DNA of 64,000 nucleotides. It comes from Candidatus Gottesmanbacteria bacterium GW2011_GWA2_43_14 (GTDB lineage: Bacteria; Patescibacteriota; Microgenomatia; 2-02-FULL-39-11). The notes beneath the pieces are model-generated. The model did not search any database. It had not been told where the DNA came from and saw only the letters and a list, made by a program, of their open reading frames with translations. The DNA lies in NCBI GenBank assembly GCA_000999095.1, contig LCFP01000012.1, positions 68,140 through 132,139 on the forward strand, given 5' to 3'. The position numbers and the translations under genes are program-made. Of this stretch, positions 20,207-52,032 are shown one piece after another; the first letter of the stretch is position 1; each line of letters begins with the position of its first letter.

Positions 20207-20211
20207 ATTTT

Positions 20212-21345: not shown

Positions 21346-22037
21346 AATCGCAAAAATTATTAAAAATAAATATTGGTTCAGGTCCTATAGGCAGATCAGA
21401 TTGGATAAATTTGGACTGGGGAATTCTGCCACTATTAAGCAAACTTCCTTTGCTAATCCGATTATTAGTCAATTTAAAGTTATTGCCGCGTGGATATAAT
21501 AAACCATGGCCGAGTAATCCCGTACTGCACGATTGCCGTAAAAAGCTTCCTTTTTCTGATTCAACCGTAGATTTCATATATTCATCCCATTTTTTGGAAC
21601 ACCTTTATCGTTTTCAGGCAATAGAATTATTAAAAGACTGTAAAAGAATATTAAAACCAAATGGAATTATAAGAATTGTTGTACCTGATTTAGCTATTTT
21701 GGCAGAAAAATACTTAAAAAATGACAAGGTTTTCTATAATAAATTATTATCTGATAGTGAAAGAAAAAATACGATTTCCAAATATTTAGCCGATGAGTTT
21801 GTGAATAATTTTAATGGATATGAATCCTGGGATAAATCAAATTTAATTCAAAAAATTCAACGATTATTTATCAGGGGACACTTATGGATGTATGACTATG
21901 AATCTCTAAAAAATATTTTAATTACTCTCGGTTTCAGAAAAATAATAAGATGCAAGCCTGGAATCGGAAAAGTACCTAATATAAAATATTTGGATATTCA
22001 TAAGTTTGGTAGTTTACTTATTGAATCTTCAAAATAA
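21342..22037 (+). CDS. class I SAM-dependent methyltransferase
   Basis: LKINIGSGPIGRSDWINLD (motif I); LKPNGIIRIVVPD. ATGA overlap with the upstream gene. Confidence 0.55.
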   Translation: MKSQKLLKINIGSGPIGRSDWINLDWGILPLLSKLPLLIRLLVNLKLLPRGYNKPWPSNPVLHDCRKKLPFSDSTVDFIYSSHFLEHLYRFQAIELLKDCKRILKPNGIIRIVVPDLAILAEKYLKNDKVFYNKLLSDSERKNTISKYLADEFVNNFNGYESWDKSNLIQKIQRLFIRGHLWMYDYESLKNILITLGFRKIIRCKPGIGKVPNIKYLDIHKFGSLLIESSK

Positions 22038-22056
22038 TTTTCTATAAATTAAATTA

Positions 22057-26089: not shown

Positions 26090-26718
26090 TGACAAATAAT
26101 TCGTGGTTAGACTGGAATCATCTACTAAATACCTATTCCAATGTTGTTACAAAAGAGAATCTAGTTATAGAAATTGGTAGCTCTACAGTTTCAAGGACAA
26201 TTGATATAGCAAAACGTTGTAAAAAATTGATAGGGGTGGAAAAGTATAAAAATCGAATTCCTGCAGACAATAAATTTTCAAGATATAAAATTAAAATTAT
26301 TAAGGGAGATTGGCAAAATTTAGGAGAAGTAATTACCCCAAATTCAATAGACATTATTATTGCTTCCCATGTAATAGAGCATGTTAAAGACGATATTAAG
26401 TGTTTGAATGAGAGTTATAAAGTGCTTAAAGAGGGAGGATACTTGATATTTAATACTCCAAATAGGAAAAGATTAGCAAGAACTATTATTGAATTTTTTA
26501 TTGGAGAAAGAAAGTTTCCTTTTTGGGAACATATTAGGGAATATGTCAAGTCAGATCTAGAAAAATTAATTGAAAAGTCAAATTTTTCTGACAAGGAAGC
26601 AGTAATTTCTTCTGTTGGATTTGGACTCCGCCTATTTGGTTTTGGATACTATACAACTCGGTCCCCAGTAATTCTTGACTCATTATCTACTTTTTGGGAA
26701 GTTGTACTAAGAAAATAA
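26089..26718 (+). CDS. class I SAM-dependent methyltransferase
   Basis: IIASHVIEHVKDDIKCLNESYKVLKEGGYLIFNTPN. Confidence 0.55.
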   Translation: MTNNSWLDWNHLLNTYSNVVTKENLVIEIGSSTVSRTIDIAKRCKKLIGVEKYKNRIPADNKFSRYKIKIIKGDWQNLGEVITPNSIDIIIASHVIEHVKDDIKCLNESYKVLKEGGYLIFNTPNRKRLARTIIEFFIGERKFPFWEHIREYVKSDLEKLIEKSNFSDKEAVISSVGFGLRLFGFGYYTTRSPVILDSLSTFWEVVLRK

Positions 26719-29481: not shown

Positions 29482-29482
29482 T

Positions 29483-30487
29483 ATGCAAAGTTCAGGTAAA
29501 CAGTCTTTAGACGAACAGTATCATATTAAAAGGATTGATCCCCAAGCCAAGAGTAGTATAATACCCTCTAATGGAAATTTTATGAGCTCAAACAGAAATG
29601 TTGTCATATCAGCCTTGATCATTCTGGTGACGGTTGTACTGGGAGGATATTTGTTAATAACCAAAAAAGACTCGCTGATCAGAAAGGGCAGTTCTACTGA
29701 TATTATTAATACTGTCGGCCTCAAATTTTCTGAAAAAAGCTTCAAGCTAGATTATGCCAATATTGATCCGGAAACTGTTTTGGAGATTTCTGACTTTGAG
29801 CGCAAAGAAGAATGGCGGGGTAGCCACGAATATGATGATGTAATCTTTTGGAAAGGCGAATACTCACTTCTTTTATCTTCCAAAGATAACGAGCAGGTTG
29901 ATGCTTACACGGAAAAGTCCTTGAATCTAGATAAACATGATGTTTTCAAAATGGCTCTGAATGTCCAGACAGATCCGGCCGATATTGAATCAGTCAAGGT
30001 TTATTTTTCCGATAAGGACAAAAACTCGTCATATTATTATTCCATCCGCAGTATTGTTAAAGGATGGAATTTTCTGGTCATTCCCAAAGAGAAATTCTCA
30101 ACGAGGGGACTCTCCAAGGAGCCGGCAGCGGCTTCCCCCGGCGCTATAACTGGTGAACTGAGTTGGTCTAACATCGAAAGGGTAGGCTTCGAATTAGCTT
30201 CAAGGGCAAATTCTTCCAGTGAAATAAATGTGGATTCGATGGAAACCTTCATCAATGAAGAATATTTGGATTCCTGGTTGGTAAAAAGTCCGGTACAGCT
30301 TAATTTGGCAAAAGTGGGAGGTCAATATTATCTTGAAGGACGTAATTACGGCGGCTCCGTAGCCTTGCTGAAAAAACTCAGCGGCATTTCCAACTTTAAA
30401 TTTAAAGCCAAGTTGATGCCAATGAAATCCAATGCCAGGAGTGGCTTGTTTGTGCGCGGTGATACGGTGTCATTAATAATTTTATAG
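29483..30487 (+). CDS. membrane-anchored extracytoplasmic protein with a beta-sandwich (lectin/GH16-like) C-terminal part; 3' end appears frameshifted
   Basis: N-terminal TM VVISALIILVTVVLGGYLLI. The ORF stops at SLIIL*, but the homologous-looking sequence continues in another frame (see next feature). Confidence 0.5.
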   Translation: MQSSGKQSLDEQYHIKRIDPQAKSSIIPSNGNFMSSNRNVVISALIILVTVVLGGYLLITKKDSLIRKGSSTDIINTVGLKFSEKSFKLDYANIDPETVLEISDFERKEEWRGSHEYDDVIFWKGEYSLLLSSKDNEQVDAYTEKSLNLDKHDVFKMALNVQTDPADIESVKVYFSDKDKNSSYYYSIRSIVKGWNFLVIPKEKFSTRGLSKEPAAASPGAITGELSWSNIERVGFELASRANSSSEINVDSMETFINEEYLDSWLVKSPVQLNLAKVGGQYYLEGRNYGGSVALLKKLSGISNFKFKAKLMPMKSNARSGLFVRGDTVSLIIL

Positions 30488-30681
30488 TTGAAAAAGATGT
30501 TCCTTTGTGGCTGTCAGTAGAAGCAAAAGGCTCGAATTTTAAATATTCCTTGTCAATGGATGATAAATCCTATTCCGAGCTGGCCCAGGTAAATGACTCG
30601 GAATATAAAGAGGGCGGCCTGGGAATAGCAGTTCTTGATTTGGGAGCCACTCTTTTTGACATGTTTGACTTCTCTCAATAA
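30463..30681 (+). pseudogene. frame-shifted C-terminal continuation of the preceding gene (indel or sequencing error around ...TCATTAATAATTTTATAG...)
   Basis: Open frame YGVINNFIVEKDVPLWLSVEAKGSNFKYSLSMDDKSYSELAQVNDSEYKEGGLGIAVLDLGATLFDMFDFSQ*. It reads through the stop of 29483..30487 and has no start codon or SD of its own. Confidence 0.4.
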
Positions 30682-39118: not shown

Positions 39119-39150
39119 GCCTCTCAAAACAGAGAGGTTTTTTGGTTTTT
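39119..39150 (+). terminator. attenuator terminator of the ilv operon (GCCTCTC-AAAACA-GAGAGGC plus TTTTTTGGTTTTT)
   Basis: Hairpin directly abutting the ilvD start. Its 5' arm can alternatively pair with GGGAGGC (39080-39086), which overlaps the leader peptide stop. The 3' arm GAGAGG doubles as the SD for the TTG at 39142. Confidence 0.6.
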
Positions 39151-40869
39151 ATGAAGAAAAAAAGCCTTAAATGGAGAAGCGGGCTTCTGACGGGAACAGC
39201 CGGTGGCAGCGACTGGGTCAAAAGGGCGGCCGCCAGGGCTATGCTTCGCGCGGTCAATTTCCGGGATGAGGATTTTCTGAAACCGATTGTCACGGTCGCC
39301 TGTCCTTTTACCAACGCCACTCCCTGCAATGCCCATCTTCTCACTTTGGGTGAAACCGTAAGCTTGGAAATCGAAAAACAGGGCGGCAAACCTTTTTTGT
39401 TCGGAACTCCCGTTATTACCGACGGCGAATCGATGGGTATGGAAGGCATGAAGTATTCCCTGGTTTCCCGCGACCTGATTGCCGACTGCATCGAATCAAT
39501 GCACGAATCCTACCAAGCCGACGGCTTAATCGCCCTTTGCGGCTGCGACAAAACCATACCGGCCGCCGCCATGGGACTGGCCCGCAACAATTCAATCGGC
39601 CTGGTTCTTTACGGAGGCAGCATATTGCCGGGACGGCTCAACGGCAAAGACCTGACCGTGGTCTCCATTTTCGAAGCCATCGGATCCAAAAGCGCCGGAA
39701 AAATGACCGATAAGGATTTCCATGATGTAGAATGCGCCTCCTGTCCGGGAAACGGGGCCTGCGGAGGGATGTATACCGCCAATACCATGGCTTCCGCCCT
39801 CGAGGTTTTGGGCATCAGCCTGCCTTATTCCTCTTCAAACCTGGCCGTTGATAGCCAAAACAGACTTTCCCGGGACAAGCTGGCCGATTGCCGCAAAAGC
39901 GCGGAGGCTTTGTTCCTGCTTCTGGAAAAAGGCATCCGGGCCAGGGATATTTTGACCGGGAAAGCTTTTGAAAACGCCGTCACTTTTGTTCTGGCCATCG
40001 GCGGCTCGACCAATGCTGTTTTGCATTTGCTGGCCATTGCCCGTGAGGCCGGCGTCAAACTGGACCTTTCTGATTTTTCCAAATTAGCTGAAAAAGTGCC
40101 CCTGATCGGCAATTTCAAACCGTTCGGCAAATATGTCATGGAAGATCTGCATAAAATCGGCGGCGTGCCCATGGTCATGAAAATGCTTTTTGAGAAAGGC
40201 CTTCTCAACGGCAGCTGTCTGACGGTCACAGGCAAAACTGTGGCCGAAAATTTAAAGGAAACGGGCAAGCGTCCTGCCGGCCAGGATGTGGTTTATAGCC
40301 TGGAAAAACCCCTGGCAGCCAAAAACTGCCATATCCGCATTCTTTACGGCAGTCTTGCCCCCGAAGGCGCTGTTATCAAGCTGGCGGGATCGGGGATAAC
40401 CCGGCACCGCGGCCCGGCGCGTGTTTTTGATCAGGAAGAATCAGCCCTGGAGGCGATTTTGGCAGGTAAAATAAAAAAAGGCGAGTGTCTTATCATCCGC
40501 TACGAAGGACCCAAAGGCGGTCCGGGCATGCGCGAAATGCTCTCTCCTTCATCCGCTTTAATGGGGGCGGGACTAGGCAGAGAGGTGGCCCTTCTTACCG
40601 ACGGCCGTTTTTCCGGAGGCACACACGGTATCATGGTCGGGCATATTTCGCCTGAAGCCGTAGACGGAGGATTGATTGCCTTGGTCAGGGACGGGGACAT
40701 CATAAATATTGACGCTGACAGCCGGACAGTTGATCTGGAGGTGGCGCAAAGCGAAATTAAAAAAAGGAAGGCTGCCTGGAAAAAGCCGAAAGCAAAATAC
40801 CCGCGGGGCGTGTTGGCCAAGTATGCCAGATTAGTCGGCAGCGCCTCGGAGGGAGCCGTCACCAGCTAG
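39142..40869 (+). CDS. ilvD: dihydroxy-acid dehydratase
   Basis: ALCGCDKTIPAAAMGLARNNSIGLVLYGGSILPG and the C-terminal GGPGMREML ... TDGRFSGGTHG motifs. Start is either TTG at 39142 or ATG at 39151. Confidence 0.9.
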   Translation: MVFMKKKSLKWRSGLLTGTAGGSDWVKRAAARAMLRAVNFRDEDFLKPIVTVACPFTNATPCNAHLLTLGETVSLEIEKQGGKPFLFGTPVITDGESMGMEGMKYSLVSRDLIADCIESMHESYQADGLIALCGCDKTIPAAAMGLARNNSIGLVLYGGSILPGRLNGKDLTVVSIFEAIGSKSAGKMTDKDFHDVECASCPGNGACGGMYTANTMASALEVLGISLPYSSSNLAVDSQNRLSRDKLADCRKSAEALFLLLEKGIRARDILTGKAFENAVTFVLAIGGSTNAVLHLLAIAREAGVKLDLSDFSKLAEKVPLIGNFKPFGKYVMEDLHKIGGVPMVMKMLFEKGLLNGSCLTVTGKTVAENLKETGKRPAGQDVVYSLEKPLAAKNCHIRILYGSLAPEGAVIKLAGSGITRHRGPARVFDQEESALEAILAGKIKKGECLIIRYEGPKGGPGMREMLSPSSALMGAGLGREVALLTDGRFSGGTHGIMVGHISPEAVDGGLIALVRDGDIINIDADSRTVDLEVAQSEIKKRKAAWKKPKAKYPRGVLAKYARLVGSASEGAVTS

Positions 40870-40900
40870 TCCATATCACACCGGGTGTGATATAGCTAGA
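40864..40900 (+). repeat. perfect palindromic hairpin (ATATCACACC-GG-GTGTGATAT, flanked by CTAG...CTAG) between ilvD and ilvB
   Basis: Inverted repeat with no T-run, overlapping the ilvD stop. Shares the ACACC...GGTGT core with the repeats at 47431 and 58745. Confidence 0.5.
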
Positions 40901-40923
40901 CACATCCGGGATTTATTAAAAAT

Positions 40924-42645
40924 ATGAAAACAAGATTAAAACAGGGACAAAAGGTCCAGGGGGCGGAAATTATCTGCGAATGCCTGCTCAGGGCAGGGGT
41001 AACTGTTATCTTCGGCTATCCGGGAGGGGCCAATATCCCGATTTATGACGCTTTGTATAAATATCCCGAGTTGAGGCATATATTGGTCCGTCATGAACAG
41101 GGAGCAGCCCATGCAGCCGAAGGCTATGCCTGGGCGACCGGCCGGCCGGGTGTTTGTTTTGCCACTTCAGGTCCCGGTGCCACCAACCTGATTACCGGAT
41201 TGGCCGATGCCATGCTCGATTCCATCCCCATGGTTTGTATCACAGGACAGGTGCCTTCGCCTCTGTTGGGTTCGGATGCCTTTCAGGAAGCGGATATATT
41301 GGGCATGACTTTGCCTGTCACCAAACACAATTATCTGGTAACCAGGGCCGATGATATTGCCGATGTTTTTGCCGAGGCATTTTATCTGGCTGTTGCCGGC
41401 CGTCCCGGACCCGTCCTTATCGATATCACCAAAGATGCCCAGGTCGATTATGCCGAATTCCGTTACAAAGAAAACCGGGACAGGCTCAAAAAGAGGTTGA
41501 AGCTTGAAGCGACAGAAGAAGAAATCGGACAGATATCCTCGCTTTTAAATGAAGCTTTGCGGCCGCTGATTGTGGCCGGCCACGGAATTTTGCTGTCCGG
41601 AGATGGGAAAACACTTTTAAGCGTGGCCGAAAAACAGGATATCCCCGTCACCCTGACGCAATTGGGGCTGTCGGCCATCCCCCACGACCACAGGCTTTTT
41701 ATGGGCATGCCGGGCATGCACGGCAATGTGGCTGCCAACCGGGCGCCTTTGGAGACGGATGTCCTTCTGGCTGTCGGCATGCGCTTTCATGACAGGGTGA
41801 CCAGTAAAGTATCGGCCTACGCGCCCCAGGCCAAGATCATCCATATCGACATCGATCCGTCGGAAATCGGCAAAAACGTCATGCCGCATTTAGGGGTTGT
41901 CGGGGATGCCAAAGCGGTTTTGGGTCAGCTTTTGCCTAAATTGAAATCCCGCAAAAATCCCGGCTGGCTGAAAAAATTTGAAGCCTGGAAAAGTGAAGAA
42001 CAAAAAAAAGTTTTTACCAGGGAATTGTTAAGCCCGAAACTCAAATCCGCCCAGGTGATAGATGAAATTGCCAGGCAGACAGGTTTTCAGGCGACCATTG
42101 TGGCGGATGTGGGTCAGAACCAAATGTATGCCGCCCGTTATTACCAATACCGGAAATACAATACCCATTTCACCTCAGGCGGACTTGGCACCATGGGTTT
42201 TGCCCTGCCGGCCGGCATGGGGGCCAAACTGGGCGATCCCGGGAGGGAAGTGTGGATTGTTATCGGAGATGGCGGCATCCAGATGACTTTGCAGGAACTG
42301 GCCACCATCGTCCAGGAAAAAACGGAGGTAAAAATTGCCCTTTTGAACAATAATTATCTGGGGATGGTCCGGCAGTGGCAGGAATTGTTTTATAAGGGCA
42401 ATTATTCGGAAGTGAAGCTTAAAAACCCAAATTTTCAAAAGCTTTGTGAAGGATTCGGCATCAGCTCTCTCAAGGCTGAAAATCTTAAGGAGACCAAAGA
42501 AGCGATAAATATTGCCAGAAAATCCCAAGGTCCCTTTTTAATCGAGTTCACGGTCGAGGCCGAGGAAAATGTTTTTCCCATGATCCCGGCCGGGGCGGGC
42601 ATCGGCGAAATGGTCGTAAGTTTGGAGGAGTTGAGTAAAAAATGA
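40924..42645 (+). CDS. ilvB: acetolactate synthase (acetohydroxy-acid synthase) large subunit
   Basis: ThDP-enzyme motifs (GYPGGANIPIYDALY ... GDGGIQMTLQEL). 573 aa. Overlaps ilvN with ATGA. Confidence 0.9.
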   Translation: MKTRLKQGQKVQGAEIICECLLRAGVTVIFGYPGGANIPIYDALYKYPELRHILVRHEQGAAHAAEGYAWATGRPGVCFATSGPGATNLITGLADAMLDSIPMVCITGQVPSPLLGSDAFQEADILGMTLPVTKHNYLVTRADDIADVFAEAFYLAVAGRPGPVLIDITKDAQVDYAEFRYKENRDRLKKRLKLEATEEEIGQISSLLNEALRPLIVAGHGILLSGDGKTLLSVAEKQDIPVTLTQLGLSAIPHDHRLFMGMPGMHGNVAANRAPLETDVLLAVGMRFHDRVTSKVSAYAPQAKIIHIDIDPSEIGKNVMPHLGVVGDAKAVLGQLLPKLKSRKNPGWLKKFEAWKSEEQKKVFTRELLSPKLKSAQVIDEIARQTGFQATIVADVGQNQMYAARYYQYRKYNTHFTSGGLGTMGFALPAGMGAKLGDPGREVWIVIGDGGIQMTLQELATIVQEKTEVKIALLNNNYLGMVRQWQELFYKGNYSEVKLKNPNFQKLCEGFGISSLKAENLKETKEAINIARKSQGPFLIEFTVEAEENVFPMIPAGAGIGEMVVSLEELSKK

Positions 42646-43124
42646 CCAGGCAATTATCCAATATCATTATATGGGCGGAAAACAAAACAGGCGTCTTTTT
42701 CCGCATCCTCTGGCTTTTCAGGCGCAAGCAGTTCAATATCGAATCGGCAACTGTGGGACATTCGGAAACTCCGGGAATTACCAGGTTTACCATAACCGTT
42801 GCCGGCAACGAAAACCAGATTGCCAATATGGTGAAGCAGATCACCAAACTGGTCAATGTGATCAAGGCAGAAACCGTAGCAACGGATATGCTCGTTTACA
42901 GGGAATTGGCTTTGATGAAAGTGGCCGTTAAAAATTCCCGCGAAAAAGGCGATATTTTGAGGGTTATCGAGCATTTCCGCGGCCGGGCTATCAACATGGC
43001 CAAAAATACCGTGACTATCGAAGTCACCGGGGATGAAAACAAGATTGACGCCTTTTACGAAAACATGAAGGATTTTGCCGTTTTAGAATTTGTCCGCACA
43101 GGAAGAACGGCCTTGTTTAAATAA
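42642..43124 (+). CDS. ilvN: acetolactate synthase small (regulatory) subunit
   Basis: ACT domain (IIIWAENKTGVFFRILWLFRRKQFNIESATVGHSE) plus ALS_ss_C. 160 aa. Confidence 0.85.
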   Translation: MTRQLSNIIIWAENKTGVFFRILWLFRRKQFNIESATVGHSETPGITRFTITVAGNENQIANMVKQITKLVNVIKAETVATDMLVYRELALMKVAVKNSREKGDILRVIEHFRGRAINMAKNTVTIEVTGDENKIDAFYENMKDFAVLEFVRTGRTALFK

Positions 43125-43145
43125 ATTTAGAAAGGAGCACTACTT

Positions 43146-44213
43146 ATGTCAAAAATGAAATTCGGAGACACGCAGGAAACAGTGGTTACCAGGGAGGAGT
43201 TTCCCTTAAGCCGCGCCAGAAAAGTCCTTAAAAATGAGACAATTGCCGTCATCGGTTACGGCGTCCAGGGGCCGGCCCAGGCGCTGAATCTCAGGGACAA
43301 CGGATTTAAAGTCATCGTCGGCCAGAGAAAACCGTCACCTTCATGGAACAAGGCTCTCAAGGACGGCTGGAAGCCGGGCAAAGACCTTTTTTCCATTGAA
43401 GAGGCCTGTAAAAAAGGGACCGTTGTAGCCTATCTGTTGTCCGATGCCGGACAGGTAACTTTATGGCCGGCTGTCAAAAAATATCTGACGGAAGGCAAAG
43501 CTCTTTATTTTTCCCACGGCTTTGCCGTTACCTACCGCAAACAAACCGCCGTCGTGCCCCCGAAAAATATCGACGTTCTATTGGTGGCTCCCAAAGGCGC
43601 CGGCCGCAGTGTCAGAAGGAATTTCCTCTCCGGCTCCGGCATCAATTCCAGTTATGCCGTTTTTCAGGATGCCTCGGGCAAAGCAGGCGACCGGGTTAAA
43701 GCAATAGGGATGGGGATAGGATCAGGCTTTTTGTTCGAAACGACTATTGAAAAGGAAGTATACTCCGATTTGACCGGCGAACGGGGGGTTCTGATGGGAG
43801 CCATCGCCGGCATTATGGAAGCCCAGTACAATGAGCTTCGCAGGCGTGGCCATACGCCGAGCGAAGCCTTCAATGAAACAGTCGAGGAAGCCACCCAGTC
43901 TTTGATCCCCCTGATCGGCGAAAACGGCATGGATTGGATGTTTGCCAACTGCTCGACAACCGCCCAAAGAGGCGCTTTGGACTGGAAAGGCAAATTCCGC
44001 CAAGCCGTCGAGCCTGTTTTCAGGCAGTTATATACTTCGGTCAAAAAAGGCGAAGAAACGAAAAGGGTCCTTAAATCCAATTCCAGTCCCGATTATAAAA
44101 AGAATCTGCGCCGGGAGCTGGACTTGATTAAAAACAGCGAGATGTGGCGGGTAGGCGCCAAGGTCAGGAGCTTAAGGCCGGAAAAAATAATATTGGTCAA
44201 AGGCAAAAAATGA
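43146..44213 (+). CDS. ilvC: ketol-acid reductoisomerase
   Basis: IAVIGYGVQGPAQALNLRDNGFKVIVGQR (NADPH-binding). 355 aa. SD AAAGGAG upstream. Confidence 0.9.
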   Translation: MSKMKFGDTQETVVTREEFPLSRARKVLKNETIAVIGYGVQGPAQALNLRDNGFKVIVGQRKPSPSWNKALKDGWKPGKDLFSIEEACKKGTVVAYLLSDAGQVTLWPAVKKYLTEGKALYFSHGFAVTYRKQTAVVPPKNIDVLLVAPKGAGRSVRRNFLSGSGINSSYAVFQDASGKAGDRVKAIGMGIGSGFLFETTIEKEVYSDLTGERGVLMGAIAGIMEAQYNELRRRGHTPSEAFNETVEEATQSLIPLIGENGMDWMFANCSTTAQRGALDWKGKFRQAVEPVFRQLYTSVKKGEETKRVLKSNSSPDYKKNLRRELDLIKNSEMWRVGAKVRSLRPEKIILVKGKK

Positions 44214-46057
44214 GCACCAACGGTTTTTACCATATCAGCTGTTTTATCTGCTCCAAAGTCTGGGATGAAAAGGTAAACACGACCGTCTGCAGCTGCGGCG
44301 GGCCTTTGGACATTGTTTACGATTACGACCAGCTGGCCGGTTTGAATACCTATCTTCTGCGCAACGCTCCGCCGAAGGTGATCAAGTATCTGGACTTCTT
44401 TCCCCTAAAAGAAAGAAAAGCACTGGTGAGTTTGGATGAGGGAGCCACCCAGCTTCATAAAGCGGAAAACCTCGGCAAACGATTATCACTGCCGAAACTT
44501 TACATCAAAAACGAGGGCTTGAATCCGACCGGCGCCTTCAAGGACCGGGGTTCATTTGTCGAGATCAACAAAGCCAAAGAGCTCGGCTTTGCTAAAGTCT
44601 GTGTCGCTTCAACAGGCAACATGGCGGCATCCGTGGCAGCTTACAGCGCCCAGGCCGGATTGACCTGTTTTGTCTTTGTCCCGGAAAATACGCCCAGGGG
44701 AAAACTGGCCCAGGCCATTTCTTACGGTTCACATGTCATCCAGGTCAGGGGCACCTATTCGGATGCTTATGACTTGACGATGAAGGTAGCCGCCCATTAC
44801 CGCTATTATCTGGCGGGCGATTATGCCTTCCGGGGAGAGGGCCAGAAATCGCTGTCATACGAAGTCTGTGAGCAGTTGTGGTTTTCGCCGCCTGATTGGG
44901 TTTTGGTTCCGGCCGGTATGGGCACCAATCTTTCGTACATTTGGAAAGGATTCAAGGAGTATTACCGTTTGGGACTGATCCCCAAATTGCCCCATATGGT
45001 GGCAGTCCAGGCGGAAGGATCTGCCCCGATTGTTACTGCATTTGAGAAAAGGTCCAAACTCGTGCCTGTCGGAAAGCCCCAGACTGTCTGTTCCGCCATC
45101 GCCGTCGGCAATCCGATAGACGCGCCGAAAGTCTTTGCCGCACTCAAAGAGTCAAAGGGCCAGGCAATAGCAGTTTCGGATGACGAGACTTTAAAAGCCC
45201 AGCAGGAACTGGCCAAACTGGAAGCTCTGTATGTCGAGCCGTCCTCGGCAACCGTGATAGCTGCCCTGAAAAAACTTATAAAAAAAGGCCTGATAAAGGA
45301 AAGCGATACCGTGGTGGCTGTGGCAACCGGAGCCGGTCTCAAGGATCCCGCGACCACGCTGAAAGTCATTGCCGAGCCGCCATTGATCGAACCTGTTTTG
45401 TCCGAAGTGGAAAGGGTCATGGACAGCGATTTTTTAAGCTTGAGGGCAGGCAGTGTCGGAGAAAAAGAAAAGCTGATATTTGCCAAAGTCCCGGCTTTAC
45501 GGCAGGTGAAGGAGATAATCAAAAAGGAATTCAGCCTGAGCCTGGATGATGAAACAGTCAAAATCATCCGCAACGTCATTGCCAAATTCATAAACATCAA
45601 GGGCAAAAAGATCGTCAAAGCGGATTTGCAGTCGATTATCGAAACGGTTATTGCCGATGAACGCAGGCAAAAGACTTTGGAAGTAGTTGATTTCCATATC
45701 GAAACTTTCAAGAAAAAGAAGCCCATGGCAACAGTCACGGTTGATATTAAAGGCCGTAAGTATACGGAAACCAGTGACGGGGTAGGTCCTGTCGATGCCG
45801 CCATCCGCGCCATCACAGCAGCCATCCGCAAAAATGATGCGGTCAAATTCAGGCTGACCGATTTTGCCGTCGAGATTCCGACCACCGGTTCCGACGCTAC
45901 GGTTGAAGCAACGATGGTCCTTCAGGATGAACACGGCACCCAGGTAGTGGAAAAGGGGACCTCTCCGGATATTATCGTCGCCTCTATCGAAGCCTATGAA
46001 AAGGGGTATAATGAACTTGTTTATCAAAGATCCAAAAACGGAAAGGATAAAAAATGA
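44210..46057 (+). CDS. threonine-synthase-fold PLP enzyme fused to a LeuA/CimA-type allosteric regulatory domain (putative threonine deaminase/synthase-like enzyme of the ilv operon)
   Basis: N-terminal Cys4 ribbon (CFICSKVW ... CSCGG). PLP lysine motif NPTGAFKDRGS. Fold-type II core. C-terminal approx 150 aa matches the LeuA_dimer regulatory domain (SDGVGPVDAAIRAITAAI ... TGSDATVEATMVL ... DIIVASIEAYEKGYNEL). ATGA overlap with ilvC. ridA immediately downstream. Confidence 0.7.
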   Translation: MSTNGFYHISCFICSKVWDEKVNTTVCSCGGPLDIVYDYDQLAGLNTYLLRNAPPKVIKYLDFFPLKERKALVSLDEGATQLHKAENLGKRLSLPKLYIKNEGLNPTGAFKDRGSFVEINKAKELGFAKVCVASTGNMAASVAAYSAQAGLTCFVFVPENTPRGKLAQAISYGSHVIQVRGTYSDAYDLTMKVAAHYRYYLAGDYAFRGEGQKSLSYEVCEQLWFSPPDWVLVPAGMGTNLSYIWKGFKEYYRLGLIPKLPHMVAVQAEGSAPIVTAFEKRSKLVPVGKPQTVCSAIAVGNPIDAPKVFAALKESKGQAIAVSDDETLKAQQELAKLEALYVEPSSATVIAALKKLIKKGLIKESDTVVAVATGAGLKDPATTLKVIAEPPLIEPVLSEVERVMDSDFLSLRAGSVGEKEKLIFAKVPALRQVKEIIKKEFSLSLDDETVKIIRNVIAKFINIKGKKIVKADLQSIIETVIADERRQKTLEVVDFHIETFKKKKPMATVTVDIKGRKYTETSDGVGPVDAAIRAITAAIRKNDAVKFRLTDFAVEIPTTGSDATVEATMVLQDEHGTQVVEKGTSPDIIVASIEAYEKGYNELVYQRSKNGKDKK

Positions 46058-46479
46058 AAAAAGCAGTAGTGGCAGAGAAAAGTCCCAAAGCAGTCGGGCC
46101 TTATTCACAGGCAGTTAAAATCGGAGACCTGGTGTTTGTTTCGGGCCAGATCGGCATAGATCCGAAAACTGATGAGATGGTAAAAGGAGGCATCAATGTC
46201 CAGACGCACCAGACGTTGAAAAATCTGGATGAGGTCCTGAAAGCAGCCGGTACGGGACAGGAAAATGTCCTAAAGGTAACCGTCTATCTGGCGAATATGG
46301 CTGATTTTCCGGTGATGAACGGAATTTACGGCAAATTTTTCAGGGAGCCTTATCCGGCCAGGGCTACAGTCCAGGTTGTCAAACTGCCGAAGGATGCCCT
46401 GATAGAGATAGAATGCATCGCTTATAAAAGTTTTCATCGTGATGATAATGAAGGTTCAGGCTGCTGCGGCAAGTGTTGA
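46054..46479 (+). CDS. ridA: RidA family reactive enamine/imine deaminase (YjgF/TdcF) with an unusual Cys-rich C-terminal tail
   Basis: VGPYSQAVKIGDLVFVSGQIG ... PARATVQVVKLPKDALIEIECIA. Tail SFHRDDNEGSGCCGKC. Confidence 0.8.
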   Translation: MKKAVVAEKSPKAVGPYSQAVKIGDLVFVSGQIGIDPKTDEMVKGGINVQTHQTLKNLDEVLKAAGTGQENVLKVTVYLANMADFPVMNGIYGKFFREPYPARATVQVVKLPKDALIEIECIAYKSFHRDDNEGSGCCGKC

Positions 46480-46482
46480 AAA

Positions 46483-47421
46483 GTGCCCGGGCAGAATCGA
46501 ATGAATGAGATTTTTTTGCCATTCGCTTTTTTCCGGGGAAAAATAATTCCGGCGGAATTGGCAAAGGTTTCCATCATGACCAATGCCCTGCAGTACGGTA
46601 CGGGAGTCTTCGGCGGCATCCGCGGCTACCAGGCAAACAATAAAAAAACTTTTCATCTCTTCCGTTTGTCCGATCATTATCAGCGTTTTTTAAGCAGCTT
46701 AAAAATTCTGAATGCGAAAATTCCCTACAACCGGGAAAAATTAGTCGGGCTGACACTGGAGCTGGCCGCCAGGAACAATTCCAAAACTGATTTTTACATC
46801 AGGCCATTGGCTTATGCTTCAAATTACGAACTCTCTCCTGATTTGTCGCTTTTAACTTTCGACTTTGCCATATATATGATTCCTTTAGGAGAATATCTGC
46901 CCATCCACAAAGGTTTAAAGATTGCCGTCTCAAGCTGGATGCGGATCAACGACAATATGATACCGTCCAGGGCTAAAATAACCGGAGGCTATATCAATTC
47001 TGCCCTGGCCAAAGGCGATGCCGCCCGGATGGGATTTGACGATGCCCTGTTGCTGACATCGGACGGTCATATAGCCGAAGGGTCCGCGGCCAATTTCTTT
47101 ATCGTCAGGGACGGCGTTCTGATCACCTCTCCCCGTAATGCCGATGTTTTGGAAGGCATAACCCGCAGGACCATCCTTCAGCTGGCGCAGGATCTGGGCA
47201 TTCCCACTCAGGAAAGGATGATTGACCGGACCGAGTGTTACATTGCCGATGAGGCTTTTCTGTCGGGGACAGGCGCCCAGCTGGCCTGGATTGCCGAAAT
47301 AGACGGACGGATAATCGGAAACGGAAAAATAGGCGAGATATCAGCCCGGCTGCAGAAACTTTTTTTCTCAATCGTCCGGGGTAACGAGCGGAAATACACC
47401 TCCTGGCTGACTAAGGTTTAG
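46483..47421 (+). CDS. ilvE: branched-chain amino acid aminotransferase (class IV)
   Basis: QYGTGVFGGIRGY ... catalytic region. 312 aa. Last gene of the + strand ilv operon. Confidence 0.85.
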   Translation: MPGQNRMNEIFLPFAFFRGKIIPAELAKVSIMTNALQYGTGVFGGIRGYQANNKKTFHLFRLSDHYQRFLSSLKILNAKIPYNREKLVGLTLELAARNNSKTDFYIRPLAYASNYELSPDLSLLTFDFAIYMIPLGEYLPIHKGLKIAVSSWMRINDNMIPSRAKITGGYINSALAKGDAARMGFDDALLLTSDGHIAEGSAANFFIVRDGVLITSPRNADVLEGITRRTILQLAQDLGIPTQERMIDRTECYIADEAFLSGTGAQLAWIAEIDGRIIGNGKIGEISARLQKLFFSIVRGNERKYTSWLTKV

Positions 47422-47430
47422 TTTCAAGGC

Positions 47431-47467
47431 TACACCCTCGAGGTGTTACAAGGCTACACCTATTGAA
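47431..47467. repeat. REP-like palindromic element GGCTACACC-CTCGAG-GTGT-TACAAGGCTACACC-TATT at the convergent ilvE/leuB junction
   Basis: ACACC / GGTGT / ACACC arms allow alternative hairpins. A near-identical copy sits at 58745-58781, also between convergent genes. Confidence 0.55.
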
Positions 47468-48553
47468 TTAATTGAAAATATATACCGAAATTTTGTTGCC
47501 GGTTTCTCCGGTGCCTAAGATTTTGGACCTATGTGTATTTTTATCAGCGATATCCATAGTCCTGAAACCGTCTGAAATGAATTTTTCCACGGCACCTTCA
47601 ATCGCCGACGCTTCTTTTTGCAAATGAAATGAAATTTTCAGCATCATGGCATCAGACAGGATAGCGCCTATCGGATTGGCAATGTTTTTACCGGCAGCCC
47701 TGTTGAATGCACCGTGGATCGGTTCGTAAAGGGCATATTCATCTCCGATTGAAGCGGAAGGCAATAGGCCGATTGAGCCGGCTATGACAGAGGCTTCGTC
47801 TGTCAGAATATCGCCGAACATGTTTTCCGTCAGGATTACGTCAAAATCAGCCGGCCTTTTGATAATCTGCATGGCCGCGTTATCGACAAACAGATGGGTT
47901 AAGACAACGGCCGGATATTTAACCGCAACCTCGCCAACCGTTTTCCGCCAAAGCCTGGACGTTTCCAAAACATTGGCTTTATCAACAGAGGTGACTTTTT
48001 TCTTTCGCCTCATGGCGAGATCAAAAGCGATCTTGGCTGCCCTTTCGATTTCGGATTTCATATATACAGAAGTATCGATTGCCGTTGTGCCTCCGTCTTT
48101 CCGTTTCCTCGGCTCCCCGAAATAAATTCCTCCGGTCAGCTCCCTGACAACCAGCAAATCAACGTGTTTTATTCTGTCGTTTTTTAAAGGAGATAAATCC
48201 ATAAGATCGGGGTAGACTTTCACCGGACGCAGGTTTGCAAATAGATTTAAAGATTTTCTCAATTTCAAAAGTCCCTGTTCCGGCCGGATTTTGGCTCCGG
48301 GGTTATTATCAAACATCGGATCACCGACAGCGCCGAACAATACGGCATCGGACCTCCGGCAAAGTTCCAGAGTTTCCTCAGGCAGCGGGTTTTTGGTTTT
48401 AACGATGGCAGCTGCTCCGATTAATCCTTCTTTGAAAACAAAATCATGTCCGTATTTTTCAGAAACAGTTTCCAGTACTTTGACCGACTGGGCAGTAACT
48501 TCCGGCCCGACTCCGTCACCGGGCAAGACGGCAATTTTATAGGTTTTTTTCAT
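47468..48553 (-). CDS. leuB: 3-isopropylmalate dehydrogenase
   Basis: MKKTYKIAVLPGDGVGPEV and conserved IMDH core. 361 aa. Confidence 0.9.
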   Translation of the reverse strand: MKKTYKIAVLPGDGVGPEVTAQSVKVLETVSEKYGHDFVFKEGLIGAAAIVKTKNPLPEETLELCRRSDAVLFGAVGDPMFDNNPGAKIRPEQGLLKLRKSLNLFANLRPVKVYPDLMDLSPLKNDRIKHVDLLVVRELTGGIYFGEPRKRKDGGTTAIDTSVYMKSEIERAAKIAFDLAMRRKKKVTSVDKANVLETSRLWRKTVGEVAVKYPAVVLTHLFVDNAAMQIIKRPADFDVILTENMFGDILTDEASVIAGSIGLLPSASIGDEYALYEPIHGAFNRAAGKNIANPIGAILSDAMMLKISFHLQKEASAIEGAVEKFISDGFRTMDIADKNTHRSKILGTGETGNKISVYIFN

Positions 48554-49121
48554 AAGTATTTATTTCCTCCTCATGTGACAAGATGTATCCGAGTTCATCC
48601 GTGCCTGACAGGAGGCAGTACTTGCGGAAAGCATCAATCTCAAAATTGAATTTTATTTTTATTTCAGGAATTTTCACTTCCTGTTTTTTTAATTCAACGT
48701 TAATTTGACAGTCAGGCCGTGTTTTTACAATCTTCATGAACCTGCTTATTTCCATGTCATTTAACTTGATGCATAAGAGCCCGTTTTTAAGAGAATTATT
48801 GTAAAAAATATCTCCGAAGGTGGAGGAAATGATTACTTTGAATCCGAAATCAGTTAAAGCCCAGACCGCATGTTCGCGGCTGGAGCCGCTGCCGAAGTTT
48901 TTGCCGGCCGCCAGAATTTTGGCTCCTTTTGTTTTTTTCTCATTGAAAATATGCTTTTTAAATTTGCCGCCGGTTTCATACCGCCAGTTATAGAAAAGAT
49001 ATTTGCCCAAGCCGGTCCTTACGGTTGTTTTCAAAAATACAGCCGGAATGATCTGGTCGGTGTCGATATTTTCGGTCTCGACAACTATTGCCGTTGAAAT
49101 AATTTTGGAAAAAGATTTCAT
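48537..49121 (-). CDS. leuD: 3-isopropylmalate dehydratase small subunit
   Basis: 194 aa aconitase swivel domain (NIDTDQIIP ... GKNFGSGSSREHA). Confidence 0.85.
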   Translation of the reverse strand: MKSFSKIISTAIVVETENIDTDQIIPAVFLKTTVRTGLGKYLFYNWRYETGGKFKKHIFNEKKTKGAKILAAGKNFGSGSSREHAVWALTDFGFKVIISSTFGDIFYNNSLKNGLLCIKLNDMEISRFMKIVKTRPDCQINVELKKQEVKIPEIKIKFNFEIDAFRKYCLLSGTDELGYILSHEEEINTYEKNL

Positions 49122-50518
49122 AAATAATTCCTGGGGTCGGCAATCCTGCCTTCAAGTGCCGAAACAGCCGCTGTCAGGGGACTGGCCAGAAAAGTCCTCG
49201 CCCCCGGCCCCTGCCTGCCTTCGTAATTGCGGTTGGAAGTCGAAACGCAATATTTGCCGGCAGGAATCCGGTCGCTGTTCATGGCTATGCAGGCGGAGCA
49301 GCCGGACCACCGCCACTGGAAACCGGCATCGGTAAAAATCCGGTCCAATCCTTCTCTTTCCGCTGCCAGTTTTACCTGACGGGAACCGGGAACAACCAGG
49401 GCCGTCACCTCCGGGCTGACTTTTTTGCCTTTGATGATTGCGGCTGCCTCCCGCAGGTCTGATATCCGGGCATTGGTGCAGCTGCCGATGAATATATAAT
49501 CGATGGGGAAGCCTTCCAATTTACCCGACGGCTTAAGGTTCATATAGCTCAGCGCTTTTTCCATCGATTTCCTGCGGCTTTCCGATTTCTCGTTTTTAGG
49601 ATCGGGTATTTCCCCGTTAATTTTTATGGCGGAAGCCGGATCCGTACCCCAGGTAACCAGAGGGGTGATTTTGTTTGCTTCAAATTTTAGCGATTTGGCA
49701 AATTTCGCTCCCTTGTCAGTTTTCAATTTCTTCCATTGCCGGACTTTCTCGTCAAATTTTTGACCATTGGGAACAAATTTCTTGCCTTTCAGATAACTGA
49801 AAGTTATTTCGTCAGGTGCGATCAGTCCCGCCCGGGAGCCTGCTTCTATCGACATGTTGCAGATTGTCATTCTTTGCTCCATGGTAAGATTTCTGATTAA
49901 ACTTCCGGTATATTCGATAAAAAATCCCGCGCCTCCGCCCGTTCCGATTCCGGCCAGGATTGTCAGGATGATGTCTTTGGCAGTGACTCCCTTGCCGATA
50001 TCGCCTTCAACGGCTATTTCCATCGACTGCATGAGTTTGGCCAAGATGCATTGTGTCGCCAGTACCTGTTCTATCTCGGTCGTGCCGATGCCGAAAGCCA
50101 GGGCGCCGAATGCGCCGTGTGTTGAGGTATGGGAATCTCCGCAGACGATAGTTTGACCCGGCTGGACAAAACCGAGCTCAGGCGCCATCACATGGACGAT
50201 TCCCTGGTAAGCGGAATCAAGCCCGTAGAGCCTGATGCCGAAATCACGGCAGTTCTTAATTAAAGTCTCTACCTGAAGTTTGGACAGGGGATCGGCAATG
50301 ACGGTCTGGTTGTCAGTTGGTACGTTATGGTCGCAGGTGGCGATGGTTTTGTCCGTCCGGCGGACTCTTAAGCCTTTTAGGCGAAGATTGGCAAAAGCCT
50401 GCGGGGTGGTCACCTCATGCAGGATATGGCCGTCGATGTAAAGGATTGAAGGCCCGTTTTTTTCCCGGTGGACAATATGTTTTTCCCAGATTTTTTCAGC
50501 CAGAGTTTTTTTCGTCAT
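49118..50518 (-). CDS. leuC: 3-isopropylmalate dehydratase large subunit
   Basis: Aconitase-family motifs (VCGDSHTSTHGAFGALAFGIG ... GSCTNARISDL). Likely start MTKKTLAEKIWEKH at 50518; the track ORF extends to 50605. Confidence 0.9.
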   Translation of the reverse strand: MTKKTLAEKIWEKHIVHREKNGPSILYIDGHILHEVTTPQAFANLRLKGLRVRRTDKTIATCDHNVPTDNQTVIADPLSKLQVETLIKNCRDFGIRLYGLDSAYQGIVHVMAPELGFVQPGQTIVCGDSHTSTHGAFGALAFGIGTTEIEQVLATQCILAKLMQSMEIAVEGDIGKGVTAKDIILTILAGIGTGGGAGFFIEYTGSLIRNLTMEQRMTICNMSIEAGSRAGLIAPDEITFSYLKGKKFVPNGQKFDEKVRQWKKLKTDKGAKFAKSLKFEANKITPLVTWGTDPASAIKINGEIPDPKNEKSESRRKSMEKALSYMNLKPSGKLEGFPIDYIFIGSCTNARISDLREAAAIIKGKKVSPEVTALVVPGSRQVKLAAEREGLDRIFTDAGFQWRWSGCSACIAMNSDRIPAGKYCVSTSNRNYEGRQGPGARTFLASPLTAAVSALEGRIADPRNYL

Positions 50519-50520
50519 GT

Positions 50521-52032
50521 TTATTTTGCGGAAAGATGATTTATGGCATCGATATAAGCCAGGCAGGCAGCCATGACGGTATCGGTGTGGACTGCCGTGC
50601 CCCAACAGAGATTCTTGTTCGATTCCAGGGCGATGTTTACCCGCGCCTGGGCATCGGAACCGCCGGTGGCAGCCTGGATTAAAAATTCCTTCAACGGATA
50701 TTTTTTACCCAGGCTTTTATCGATCGCATTGAAGATGGCATCTATTGCTCCGTTCCCCAGAGCTTCGGCTGATTTTATTTTTCCGCCAACCAGCAATTTA
50801 ATGTCTGCCCGCGGTTTTATATGGCTGCCGGAAATAATTTTCAAATCAGAAAGCCTTATTTTTTTAGTTTGCCCGTTTGACCCGTTGCTGCCAAAAATAG
50901 TCAGCAGGTCTTCGTCGTAGATTTCTTTTTTGGCATCTGCAAGCTGCAAGAATTTTGCGTAGAGTTTATCAAGTTCTTCCGGAGAAATCCTGATGTTCAT
51001 TTTTTCCAGTTTATGTCTGACCGCTGCCCGGCCGCTTCTGGCGGTCAGGATAATCTGCGACAGGCCTGCGCCGACAATTTTCGGATCAATGATCTCATAA
51101 TTTTCCCTGTGTTTGAGAATGCCGTCCTGGTGGATGCCTGATGAATGGGCAAAAGCATTTGATCCGACGATGGCTTTGTTCGGCGCCACGGGAATGCCCA
51201 TGATGTGGGAAACCATCCGGGAAGTATTTATTATTTGCCGGGTTTTGACTTTGGTCGAAAAATTCTGAAAATTTTTCCTGGTATAAAGAGCCATGACGAT
51301 TTCTTCCAGGGAAGTGTTGCCGGCCCGCTCGCCTATGCCGTTGACGGTCACTTCCGCCTGCCGGGCGCCGTTTTCGATGCCTGCTAAAGTATTGGCGGTA
51401 GCCAAGCCCAGATCATCATGGCAGTGGACGCTGATGACAGCCTTGCCGATATTCGGTACGTTTTCTTTCAGGTATTTGATTTTTCGGCCGAATTCTTCCG
51501 GGAAACAGTAGCCGGTGGTATCGGGGATGTTGACGACGGTCGCGCCGGCGTGTATTACGGCGGTAATCAGTTTGGCCAGAAATTCCAAATCAGCCCGGCC
51601 TGCGTCCTCGGCGTAAAACTCGACGTCGTGCACGAATTTTTTGGCGTACTTAACGGCTTCGACTCCCTTTATCAGGATTTTTTCCCTGGTCGATTTGAAC
51701 TTATATTTGATATGGACATCGGATGCTCCTATGCCGGTATGGATTCTGGGACGTTTGGCATGCTGCAAAGCTTCAGCCGCCGCGTCGATATCCTCTTTGA
51801 CAGCCCTGGTCAGTCCGCAGACAACCGTTTTTTTGATCACCCTTGAGATCTGGTCGACTGAGCGGAAATCACCCGGGCTTGAGACGGGGAAGCCGGCCTC
51901 GATTGTGTCCACCCCCAGATTTTCCAGCTGCAGGGCCAGTTGGATTTTCCGGTTGGTGTCCAGTTTCGCCCCGGGCGACTGTTCTCCGTCGCGCAGAGTC
52001 GTATCGAAAATATGGATTTTTTGTCTGCTCAT
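50521..52032 (-). CDS. leuA: 2-isopropylmalate synthase
   Basis: [31 protein letters not shown], and C-terminal LeuA_dimer regulatory domain ([16 protein letters not shown] ...). Confidence 0.9.

Follow-up and report, generated by a model that had tools for sequence, protein, structure and literature searches.

Which function should be assigned to a protein that resembles threonine synthase (ThrC) and is encoded in the middle of an ilv operon? For such a gene in the 64,000-nucleotide stretch of DNA analysed here (the window), the first-pass annotation had proposed that a ThrC-fold enzyme supplies 2-oxobutyrate, with feedback through a LeuA/CimA-like domain. This proposal is supported by the active site of the protein, its clade, its gene context, its stand-alone relatives and the likeness of its C-terminal domain. 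With a probability of about 0.6, the fusion protein would be a ThrC-derived, feedback-regulated threonine deaminase doing the job of IlvA. The domain architecture, fold, residue substitutions, clade structure and gene neighbourhoods are observed; from them we infer which substrate and effector the enzyme binds, which product it makes and in which direction it is regulated. A literature search retrieved no paper describing a ThrC-like/LeuA_dimer fusion.

The operon and the fusion protein

The genes of the forward strand are ordered ilvD (39151-40869), ilvB (40924-42645), ilvN (42642-43124), ilvC (43146-44213), the fusion gene (44210-46057), ridA (46054-46479) and ilvE (46501-47421), followed on the reverse strand by leuB, leuD, leuC and leuA (47468-52032). 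The products of ilvD, ilvB and ilvN scored above the cut-offs of NCBIfam equivalogs, the ketol-acid reductoisomerase IlvC matched TIGR00465 with 314 bits and the branched-chain amino acid aminotransferase IlvE matched NF005146 with 349 bits (cut-off 279). The enamine/imine deaminase RidA falls in its subfamily by both its TIGR00004 score (168.7 bits, cut-off 106.25) and its catalytic arginine, carried by a P-A-R motif. In the leu cluster, leuB was assigned with NCBIfam and leuA with TIGR00973, and the genes were called with Pfam. The presence of ridA and then ilvE downstream of the fusion gene, already noticed at first reading, was thereby established, as was its translational coupling to ilvC: ATGA overlaps flank the gene on both sides, joining the ilvC stop to its start and its own stop to the ridA start. 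The extent first attributed to the gene (44210-46479, 616 residues) had to be corrected. It is a single uninterrupted ORF of 615 amino acids plus a stop ending at 46057, and the longer span covers two genes because 46479 is the end of ridA.

The absence of a canonical ilvA from the operon was verified, and no ilvA, thrC, thrB or hom was found along the ~94 kb of source contig covered. Within the window, no other ORF was detectably similar to the PLP domain of the fusion. Judged by the TIGR00973 score of 667 bits (cut-off 598.7), leuA of the window encodes a genuine 2-isopropylmalate synthase and not a CimA, so that the cluster contains no other source of 2-oxobutyrate. The same protein scored 207.7 bits with the citramalate synthase model TIGR00977, whose cut-off is 450.

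The fusion protein starts with a Cys4 zinc-ribbon-like knuckle (44240-44296; motif CFIC...CSC read from the sequence), whose cysteines C11, C14, C27 and C29 are each conserved in 90% or more of 78 homologues. A ThrC-like fold-type II PLP catalytic domain follows (residues 73-374, 44426-45331; Pfam PALP, E 5.4e-74), with the PLP-lysine motif NPTGAFKDRGS at residues 105-115 and an invariant K111 (codon 44540-44542). A conserved helical linker (residues ~385-467, 45362-45610), corresponding in part to the accessory/linker region found ahead of the LeuA regulatory domain, leads to a LeuA_dimer (PF08502) allosteric domain (residues 468-603, 45611-46018; E 8e-28, 97.4 bits versus a gathering score of 24.9). 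This profile search, PALP then LeuA_dimer, upheld the LeuA/CimA-type C-terminus described at first reading. Its likeness to the LeuA tail of the window was also recovered, the region aligning to LeuA residues 356-499 with 26% identity (E 3e-8). Neither an ACT-like Thr_dehydrat_C domain nor an HMGL-like domain was detected in the fusion by Pfam; its C-terminus is LeuA_dimer instead of the former, and the N-terminal partner of LeuA_dimer is PALP. The AF2 model (pLDDT 86.5, pTM 0.73) has the fold expected of LeuA_dimer at the C-terminus and that of a ThrC-type PLP enzyme, with its catalytic lysine, at the N-terminus.

The top NCBIfam matches were threonine synthase models, with 250.5 bits for TIGR00260 (cut-off 167.1) and 299.4 bits for PRK08197, just under its cut-off of 303. 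Together with the motifs, the first of these scores and the low scores of the IlvA models (TIGR01127, 90.3 bits for a cut-off of 378.75; TIGR01124, 73.3 bits for a cut-off of 411.3) confirmed that the N-terminus is ThrC-like and places the protein outside the IlvA family. The nearest relatives in sequence and fold are class I ThrCs (EC 4.2.3.1; PDB 2ZSJ, 2D1F, 6CGQ and 1UIM), with 38-42% identity and a TM-score of about 0.85. They share with the fusion the PLP lysine, the S-T-G-N loop and the R-x-E-G-Q-K and T-G-x-G-L-K-D motifs. An identity of 40-42% to authentic ThrCs and a score above the TIGR00260 equivalog cut-off count against the deaminase reading.

An assembly or frameshift artefact was ruled out. 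The identical protein is encoded in at least three independent assemblies (ENA ERZ27254745, ENA ERZ978281 on a 131.8 kb contig, and Logan SRR29904086), the two domains occur together in more than 115 protein clusters (45-90% identity), and 518 GTDB species genomes, mainly of CPR/Patescibacteria, DPANN archaea and Methylomirabilota, encode a relative.

Active site and phylogeny

Active-site positions were compared by alignment to the Thermus thermophilus ThrC, using the 1UIM numbering. In this enzyme, T88, N154, S155, R160 and N188 are the presumed ligands of the substrate or product phosphate, as reportedly described by Omi in 2003 and by Murakawa in 2011; our comparison bears on their conservation. 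The PLP lysine K61 (K111 in the fusion) and R160 (R208) are retained. T88 is replaced by M138, N188 by M237 and the N154-S155 pair by G203-D204 with a one-residue deletion; the placement of the gap can shift the pair to A202-G203, and it is lost in either alignment. The pattern K-T-[SA]-N-S-R-N is kept in all five solved ThrCs and in 57 metagenomic canonical ThrCs, whereas M138, G203, D204 and R208 are found in 78 out of 78 fusions, with M, C, V, A or F at position 237. Four of the five conserved ThrC positions are thus replaced in the 78 fusions, which keep only the R160 equivalent. Since this arginine is retained and invariant, some anion binding may persist.

A neighbour-joining tree was built from 150 representatives and 3 ThrCs from the PDB. 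The proteins with the K-M-x-G-D-R pattern form one clade of 36, separate from a clade of 10 canonical ThrCs, and by this tree the M-GD signature marks a clade apart from canonical ThrC. TIGR00260 scores ranged from 217 to 267 bits for the M-type proteins and reached 336 for two representatives with the canonical signature. The fusion enzyme itself lies outside the clade of canonical ThrCs.

Gene neighbourhoods and rival readings

Loci from 80 species genomes with the fusion were compared with 57 canonical ThrC loci as controls. A ridA gene is directly adjacent in 20 of the 80 fusion loci and in none of the controls (Fisher exact p = 9e-6), and ilv genes flank 34 of the former versus 3 of the latter (p = 5e-7). 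This association with ilv genes and RidA, also seen in the window operon, is the one expected of IlvA. Conversely, hom/thrA was found in the flank of 37 canonical ThrC genes and of no fusion gene (p = 3e-19), nor was hom or thrB detected near the fusions, which lack the linkage to threonine-pathway genes (hom, thrA, thrB) expected of a ThrC. No IlvA-like paralogue was detected within 10 kb of the fusion at the 80 loci. The Methylomirabilota (NC10) fusion loci, about 31 of the 80, and an archaeal stand-alone subgroup (KMGGDRN) are devoid of ilv or ridA neighbours; in these two groups, a functional ThrC could carry the signature.

Some members of the same subclade lack the C-terminal domain. In P0123, ridA overlaps the ThrC-like gene, and in P0134 it follows. 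P0150 and L097 both exhibit the order HMGL-like gene, ThrC-like gene, ridA. Finally, the P0138/L094 operon comprises ilvB, ilvN, ilvC, the ThrC-like gene, ilvD, thrA, a SKI-like kinase gene and a class-II thrC (Thr_synth_N match, E 1e-19), so that this operon already has a gene for a genuine threonine synthase.

Linkage to ridA and ilv genes would fit equally well a beta,gamma-elimination of O-phosphohomoserine to 2-oxobutyrate, phosphate and ammonia, with RidA clearing the enamine and isoleucine feeding back through the C-terminal domain. As Murakawa is said to have described in 2011, 2-oxobutyrate formation from O-phosphohomoserine is a side reaction of ThrC chemistry; losing phosphate retention would favour this product, R208 is invariant and, in L094, thrA and the gene of a putative homoserine kinase lie in one operon with the stand-alone homologue. 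The enzyme would then make no use of threonine, and the isoleucine route of CPR, DPANN and NC10 organisms would leave upstream of threonine, by way of an isoleucine-regulated phosphohomoserine lyase that has not been described before. We regard both this reaction and this route as unlikely: the loss of most presumed phosphate ligands and the new Asp disfavour a phosphorylated substrate, no hom or thrB accompanies any fusion gene, and threonine is available in L094 because it also encodes ThrC.

There is likewise only a small chance that the fusion is a genuine threonine synthase that acquired a LeuA-type domain, isoleucine or leucine tuning the threonine supply while a separate IlvA encoded elsewhere in the genome makes 2-oxobutyrate. 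The public annotations, all of which name the protein threonine synthase, the TIGR00260 and PRK08197 scores, the retained PLP lysine and R160, and the NC10 and archaeal members without ilv or ridA context all speak for it. The replacement of four out of five presumed phosphate-site residues, including Ser to Asp, speaks against it, together with the contrasting hom/thrA and ridA linkages of fusion and canonical loci and the class-II thrC found beside one stand-alone member. Moreover, we know of no precedent for branched-chain amino acid feedback on ThrC.

Another substrate is similarly doubtful, be it L-serine (giving pyruvate) or homoserine or methionine (giving 2-oxobutyrate). With its hydrophobic lining (M138 and, at position 237, M, C or V) and D204, the former phosphate pocket could accommodate various side chains. 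The NC10 neighbourhoods give no hint of the substrate, and 2-aminoacrylate derived from serine is another substrate of RidA (PMC3565831). The recurrent position in ilv operons nevertheless points to 2-oxobutyrate from the Asp/Thr branch, as does the L094 operon with its thrA, kinase and thrC genes. A catalytically modest amino-acid sensor is put in the same doubtful group, and the invariance of the catalytic lysine and of the motifs that bind PLP makes a pure sensor unlikely.

Proposed reaction and its regulation

In the threonine deaminase reading, a ThrC-derived PLP enzyme would have lost the phosphate site for O-phosphohomoserine and would serve as the biosynthetic threonine deaminase of the organism. 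L-threonine would form an external aldimine on K111-PLP, and elimination of water would give PLP-aminocrotonate, which ThrC also forms as its final intermediate. With no bound phosphate directing water to C-beta, 2-aminocrotonate/2-iminobutyrate would be let go and hydrolysed to 2-oxobutyrate by the translationally coupled RidA, and IlvBN, IlvC, IlvD and IlvE of the same operon would turn 2-oxobutyrate into isoleucine. A ThrC without active-site phosphate reportedly yields mainly 2-oxobutyrate, a result attributed to Murakawa and colleagues (JBC, in 2011). Counting against the deaminase reading, the threonine deaminase activity known for ThrCs is a weak side reaction.

ThrCs of Microcystis, T. 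thermophilus and B. subtilis convert threonine to 2-oxobutyrate in vitro, and the Microcystis aeruginosa enzyme is inhibited in vitro by isoleucine and alanine (PMC12172450). The latter, compared here by description, is like the fusion of ThrC lineage and makes 2-oxobutyrate (predicted only for the fusion); it differs in still using O-phosphohomoserine at low Km and in lacking LeuA_dimer (PMC12172450). IlvA itself (EC 4.3.1.19; TIGR01124/TIGR01127) resembles the fusion in that a fold-type II PLP domain precedes a C-terminal amino-acid-sensing domain (sensing being predicted for the fusion), the gene lies in ilv operons and the enamine/imine product is processed by RidA; this processing and the same committed isoleucine step are predicted for the fusion. 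It differs by its ACT-like Thr_dehydrat_C domain where the fusion has LeuA_dimer, and the fusion carries in addition its N-terminal Cys4 knuckle. In the tdc operon of E. coli, the threonine dehydratase TdcB is genetically paired with TdcF, a RidA-family protein. There too a threonine-deaminating PLP enzyme (as predicted for the fusion) is encoded beside a Rid-family gene, but the system is catabolic and TdcB is IlvA-type and nucleotide-regulated, not a ThrC derivative.

If the deaminase reading is true, "threonine synthase" would be a systematic misannotation in hundreds of genomes, from at least 518 GTDB species that are mostly CPR/Patescibacteria, DPANN archaea and Methylomirabilota. A non-orthologous enzyme would stand in for the ilvA step that these genomes seem to lack, which would alter metabolic reconstructions and predicted auxotrophies in lineages usually called biosynthetically poor. 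It would also be a clear natural switch of reaction specificity in PLP enzymes, loss of the "product-assisted" phosphate turning a synthase into a deaminase, and a case of modular allostery, a LeuA/CimA effector domain having moved onto an unrelated catalytic scaffold with the same pathway controlled.

As the counterpart of the ACT-like domains of IlvA, the LeuA/CimA-type domain is predicted to dimerise and to inhibit the catalytic domain upon binding a branched-chain amino acid, for which isoleucine is the most probable candidate. In CimA, PF08502 responds specifically to L-isoleucine (PMC13381585). The fusion shares with the CimA/LeuA regulatory domains (PDB 3F6G/3F6H and 3FIG) the G-x-G-P-x-D and S-P-D motifs and, in the deaminase reading, the presence on an enzyme committing carbon to a branched-chain amino acid; its domain is joined to a PLP enzyme instead of an HMGL-like TIM-barrel Claisen condensase, and its effector is a predicted one. 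In such domains, a hydrophobic pocket for an amino acid is expected at the dimer interface. Among solved structures, the isoleucine-bound regulatory domain of the Leptospira citramalate synthase (LiCMS) is the nearest to that of the fusion; its isoleucine pocket is presumed to be lined by L451, I458, V468, Y454, T464 and Y430. Most of this presumed pocket is kept in the alignment, where five of the six residues are identical (L549, I556 and V565 for L451, I458 and V468) or conservatively replaced (Y454 by F552, T464 by S561) in the fusion, the sixth, Y430, corresponding to V528.

Predicted function and domain architecture of the fusion

We propose, with a probability of about 0.6, that the fusion is a ThrC-derived biosynthetic threonine deaminase, coupled to RidA and feedback-controlled via a transplanted LeuA/CimA domain. 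In this scheme 2-aminocrotonate/2-iminobutyrate would pass from the enzyme to the coupled RidA, the 2-oxobutyrate thus formed would feed IlvBN, and control would be exerted through the transplanted domain. The chemistry has a precedent, since in vitro deamination of threonine is documented for the ThrCs of Microcystis, T. thermophilus and B. subtilis (PMC12172450). In the full-text papers and preprints searched, neither a protein combining ThrC with LeuA_dimer nor a RidA-linked ThrC-like deaminase clade was described. Fold-type II PLP deaminases that act at the isoleucine branch point and bear a C-terminal effector domain are already known; the catalytic lineage and the regulatory module of the proposed deaminase are new.

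The fusion is encoded by one uninterrupted ORF of 615 aa on the forward strand (44210-46057). The first-pass annotation had correctly described a single gene and its start; the end it gave, 46479, is that of the next gene, ridA, and its length of 616 aa was also inexact. The Pfam profile search located PALP at residues 73-374 (E-value 5.4e-74) and LeuA_dimer (PF08502) at residues 468-603 (E-value 8e-28, 97.4 bits for a gathering score of 24.9), in the order anticipated by that annotation. The ThrC-like N-terminus it had recognised was recovered as well: the Cys4 motif (C11, C14, C27 and C29) and NPTGAFKDRGS with K111 are present, and the top-ranked NCBIfam models are threonine synthases, TIGR00260 scoring 250.5 bits (cut-off 167.1) and PRK08197 299.4 bits (cut-off 303), while IlvA models reached merely 73-90 bits against cut-offs of 378-411. 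The LeuA-like C-terminus was likewise upheld, the last 235 aa aligning in BLASTP with residues 356-499 of the window's own LeuA (26% identity, E-value 3e-8) and residues 411-612 covering positions about 316-510 of the NCBIfam LeuA models. The sole PDB match of this domain by sequence was 3F6G/3F6H (E-value 6.7e-6). An AlphaFold2 model of the fusion, calculated from a 78-sequence alignment, had a mean pLDDT of 86.5 and a pTM of 0.73.

A frameshift or chimeric-assembly artefact was rejected because the ORF runs without a break, an identical protein is encoded on contigs of three independent assemblies (one of them a 131.8-kb groundwater contig), and the linker is well conserved, as are both domains, across the 78 homologues. 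The family is large: a relative is encoded in 518 genomes in a scan that covered each GTDB species with one genome, and a protein search yielded upwards of 115 clusters that combine both domains, at 45-90% identity, every named one being annotated "threonine synthase". The top match, at 91%, belongs to a Candidatus Gottesmanbacteria MAG, and further hosts are Peregrinibacteria, Gracilibacteria, Woesebacteria, Methylomirabilota (NC10) and some DPANN archaea. On one Gottesmanbacteria contig (L010, MFJR01000010, 10001-11768) the fusion gene lies in two ORFs, with matches of 771 and 175 bits, probably through a frameshift or sequencing error; such splits may explain some PALP-only entries of 420-443 aa, such as P0072 and P0079.

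Active site and stand-alone relatives

The fusion was aligned to T. thermophilus ThrC and positions were counted from the HMMER alignment. K61 and R160 of the latter are kept as K111 and R208, T88 and N188 are replaced by M138 and M237, and N154-S155 corresponds, with a one-residue deletion, to G203-D204 or A202-G203 according to gap placement, the N-S pair being lost in both placements. T88, N154, S155, R160 and N188, which reportedly bind the substrate and product phosphate (Omi et al. 2003; Murakawa et al. 2011), are retained in all five solved ThrCs and in 57 metagenomic canonical ThrCs (signature K-T-[SA]-N-S-R-N). Among 78 fusions, M138, G203, D204 and R208 are invariant, and the residue at position 237 varies (M, C, V, A or F). 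Phosphate is reportedly needed to steer water addition towards threonine, and without it the main product of ThrC is said to be 2-oxobutyrate. The retention of R160 counts against the deaminase reading. A direct lyase converting O-phosphohomoserine into 2-oxobutyrate, which the kept arginine favours and the alteration of the other presumed ligand positions disfavours, is improbable; a genuine ThrC under allosteric regulation, which has the model scores on its side and the loss of T88, N154, S155 and N188 against it, also appears unlikely.

When the catalytic domain was used for an exhaustive HMMER search, many stand-alone ThrC-like proteins were recovered besides fusions, and the K-M-x-G-D-R signature of the fusions was also found in stand-alone proteins of 350-440 aa. 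In a neighbour-joining tree the proteins with this signature formed one clade of 36 (15 fusions, 18 stand-alone proteins and 3 near-variants), and the canonical-signature ThrCs a separate clade of 10 including three PDB enzymes. TIGR00260 scored 217-267 bits on eight proteins of the former type and 336 bits on two canonical representatives. About 15 further ThrC-like proteins of 470-520 aa (P0145, P0159, P0167, P0168, P0188, P0201, P0207, P0220, P0231, P0246, P0248, P0261, P0262, P0265 and P0269) carry I, L, M, V, N or T in the PLP-lysine column, which could reflect either a family of pseudoenzymes lacking the lysine or a shifted alignment.

In two stand-alone members of the fusion's subclade, the gene is overlapped by ridA (P0123) or directly followed by it (P0134). 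In P0150 and at locus L097, the stand-alone gene is followed by ridA and immediately preceded by an HMGL-like gene (LeuA/CimA catalytic type, about 410 aa) without a LeuA_dimer domain; this arrangement may be a relic or a precursor of the domain shuffling behind the fusion. The most telling stand-alone case is P0138 (locus L094), with the order ilvB, ilvN, ilvC, ThrC-like gene, ilvD, thrA (a bifunctional aspartokinase/homoserine dehydrogenase, 1045 bits), a shikimate-kinase-like gene and the first part of a class-II threonine synthase gene (Thr_synth_N, 70.7 bits, E-value 1e-19), within which the contig ends. The kinase-like P-loop protein (210 aa, 9311-9943) scored best with NF040667, the model for homoserine kinases of the Desulfovibrio type (50.8 bits, below the cut-off of 197), and may be a divergent homoserine kinase. 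A canonical ThrC is therefore already encoded in this operon, and the ThrC-like M-GD enzyme is placed between ilv genes, as expected if the latter performs the IlvA step. The gene contexts of an archaeal stand-alone subgroup (KMGGDRN) were uninformative.

Gene context in the window and across genomes

The fusion is preceded by ilvD, ilvB, ilvN and ilvC and followed by ridA and ilvE, beyond which leuB, leuD, leuC and leuA lie on the opposite strand. The coupling to ilvC noted at first pass was verified, the start of the fusion overlapping the ilvC stop by ATGA and its stop overlapping the ridA start in the same manner. The reported absence of a canonical ilvA from the operon also stood: no ilvA, thrC, thrB or hom was found across roughly 94 kb of its contig, and no second ORF similar to the PLP domain was detectable in the window. 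Judged by its model scores, the leuA product is a genuine isopropylmalate synthase (667 bits on TIGR00973, cut-off 598.7) and not a citramalate synthase (207.7 bits on TIGR00977, cut-off 450), and for this operon the citramalate route to 2-oxobutyrate was therefore rejected.

The branched-chain amino acid cluster (ilvD, ilvB, ilvN, ilvC, fusion, ridA, ilvE, leuA, leuC, leuD, leuB; 39142-52032) is complete, in a genome assigned through its top match to Candidatus Gottesmanbacteria (CPR), a group usually described as without amino-acid biosynthesis. RidA (46054-46479) has an unusual Cys-rich C-terminal tail (…HRDDNEGSGCCGKC) past the normal end of its domain. An archaeal-type PEP carboxylase (Pfam PEPcase_2), then a class I/II aminotransferase and an aspartyl-tRNA synthetase, are encoded at 61867-63369 and just past the window end (L087), which suggests a local oxaloacetate-to-aspartate supply. 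A large cluster at about 12000-30500, probably a cell-surface polysaccharide locus, comprises glycosyltransferases, methyltransferases, a B12-binding radical-SAM protein, a DegT-type aminotransferase and two large proteins, of 920 and 334 aa, that match no Pfam family.

Fusion loci of 80 genomes were compared with the 57 metagenomic canonical ThrC loci by Fisher test. ridA is directly adjacent at 20/80 fusion loci and lies anywhere in the flank at 0/57 canonical loci (p = 9e-6); the flanks contain ilv genes in 34/80 and 3/57 cases (p = 5e-7), and hom/thrA in 0/80 and 37/57 cases, 31 of the latter adjacent (p = 3e-19). None of the 80 fusion loci has a SKI-like kinase or class-II thrC homologue in its flank, and none has an IlvA-like paralogue at a distance of up to 10 kb. 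In a Methylomirabilota genome (L017, 1312-2562) and an unclassified bacterial MAG (L033, 4482-5888), the fusion is directly preceded by a second ThrC-like paralogue, which stands alone; it was not taken as proof of a separate ThrC because its own active site is non-canonical (STGNAG, R160 changed to K, no GNAGN loop).

Neither ilv genes nor ridA occur at 41 of the 80 loci. Of these 41, 31 are labelled Methylomirabilota or NC10, and ORF clustering with Pfam yielded PutA, HhH-GPD, ApbA and DCD but no conserved informative neighbours in the Methylomirabilota. This absence of supporting context in NC10, and in one archaeal subgroup, also counts against the deaminase reading. Another substrate, or a sensor role, is an unlikely alternative.

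Regulatory domain

The amino-acid pocket of the Leptospira citramalate synthase LiCMS is reportedly formed by L451, I458, V468, Y454, T464 and Y430 (Zhang et al. 2009). In the sequence alignment L451, I458 and V468 are matched by L549, I556 and V565 of the fusion, and Y454, T464 and Y430 are replaced by F552, S561 and V528. In the 78-sequence alignment V528 and V565 are invariant, and L549 and I556 are conserved in at least 90% of the sequences. Since these residues are mostly kept and conserved in the family, the pocket of the fusion may be intact. The predicted effector is Ile, Leu or Val, of which Ile is favoured by pathway logic rather than by sequence. The PF08502 domain of CimA responds specifically to L-isoleucine (PMC13381585).
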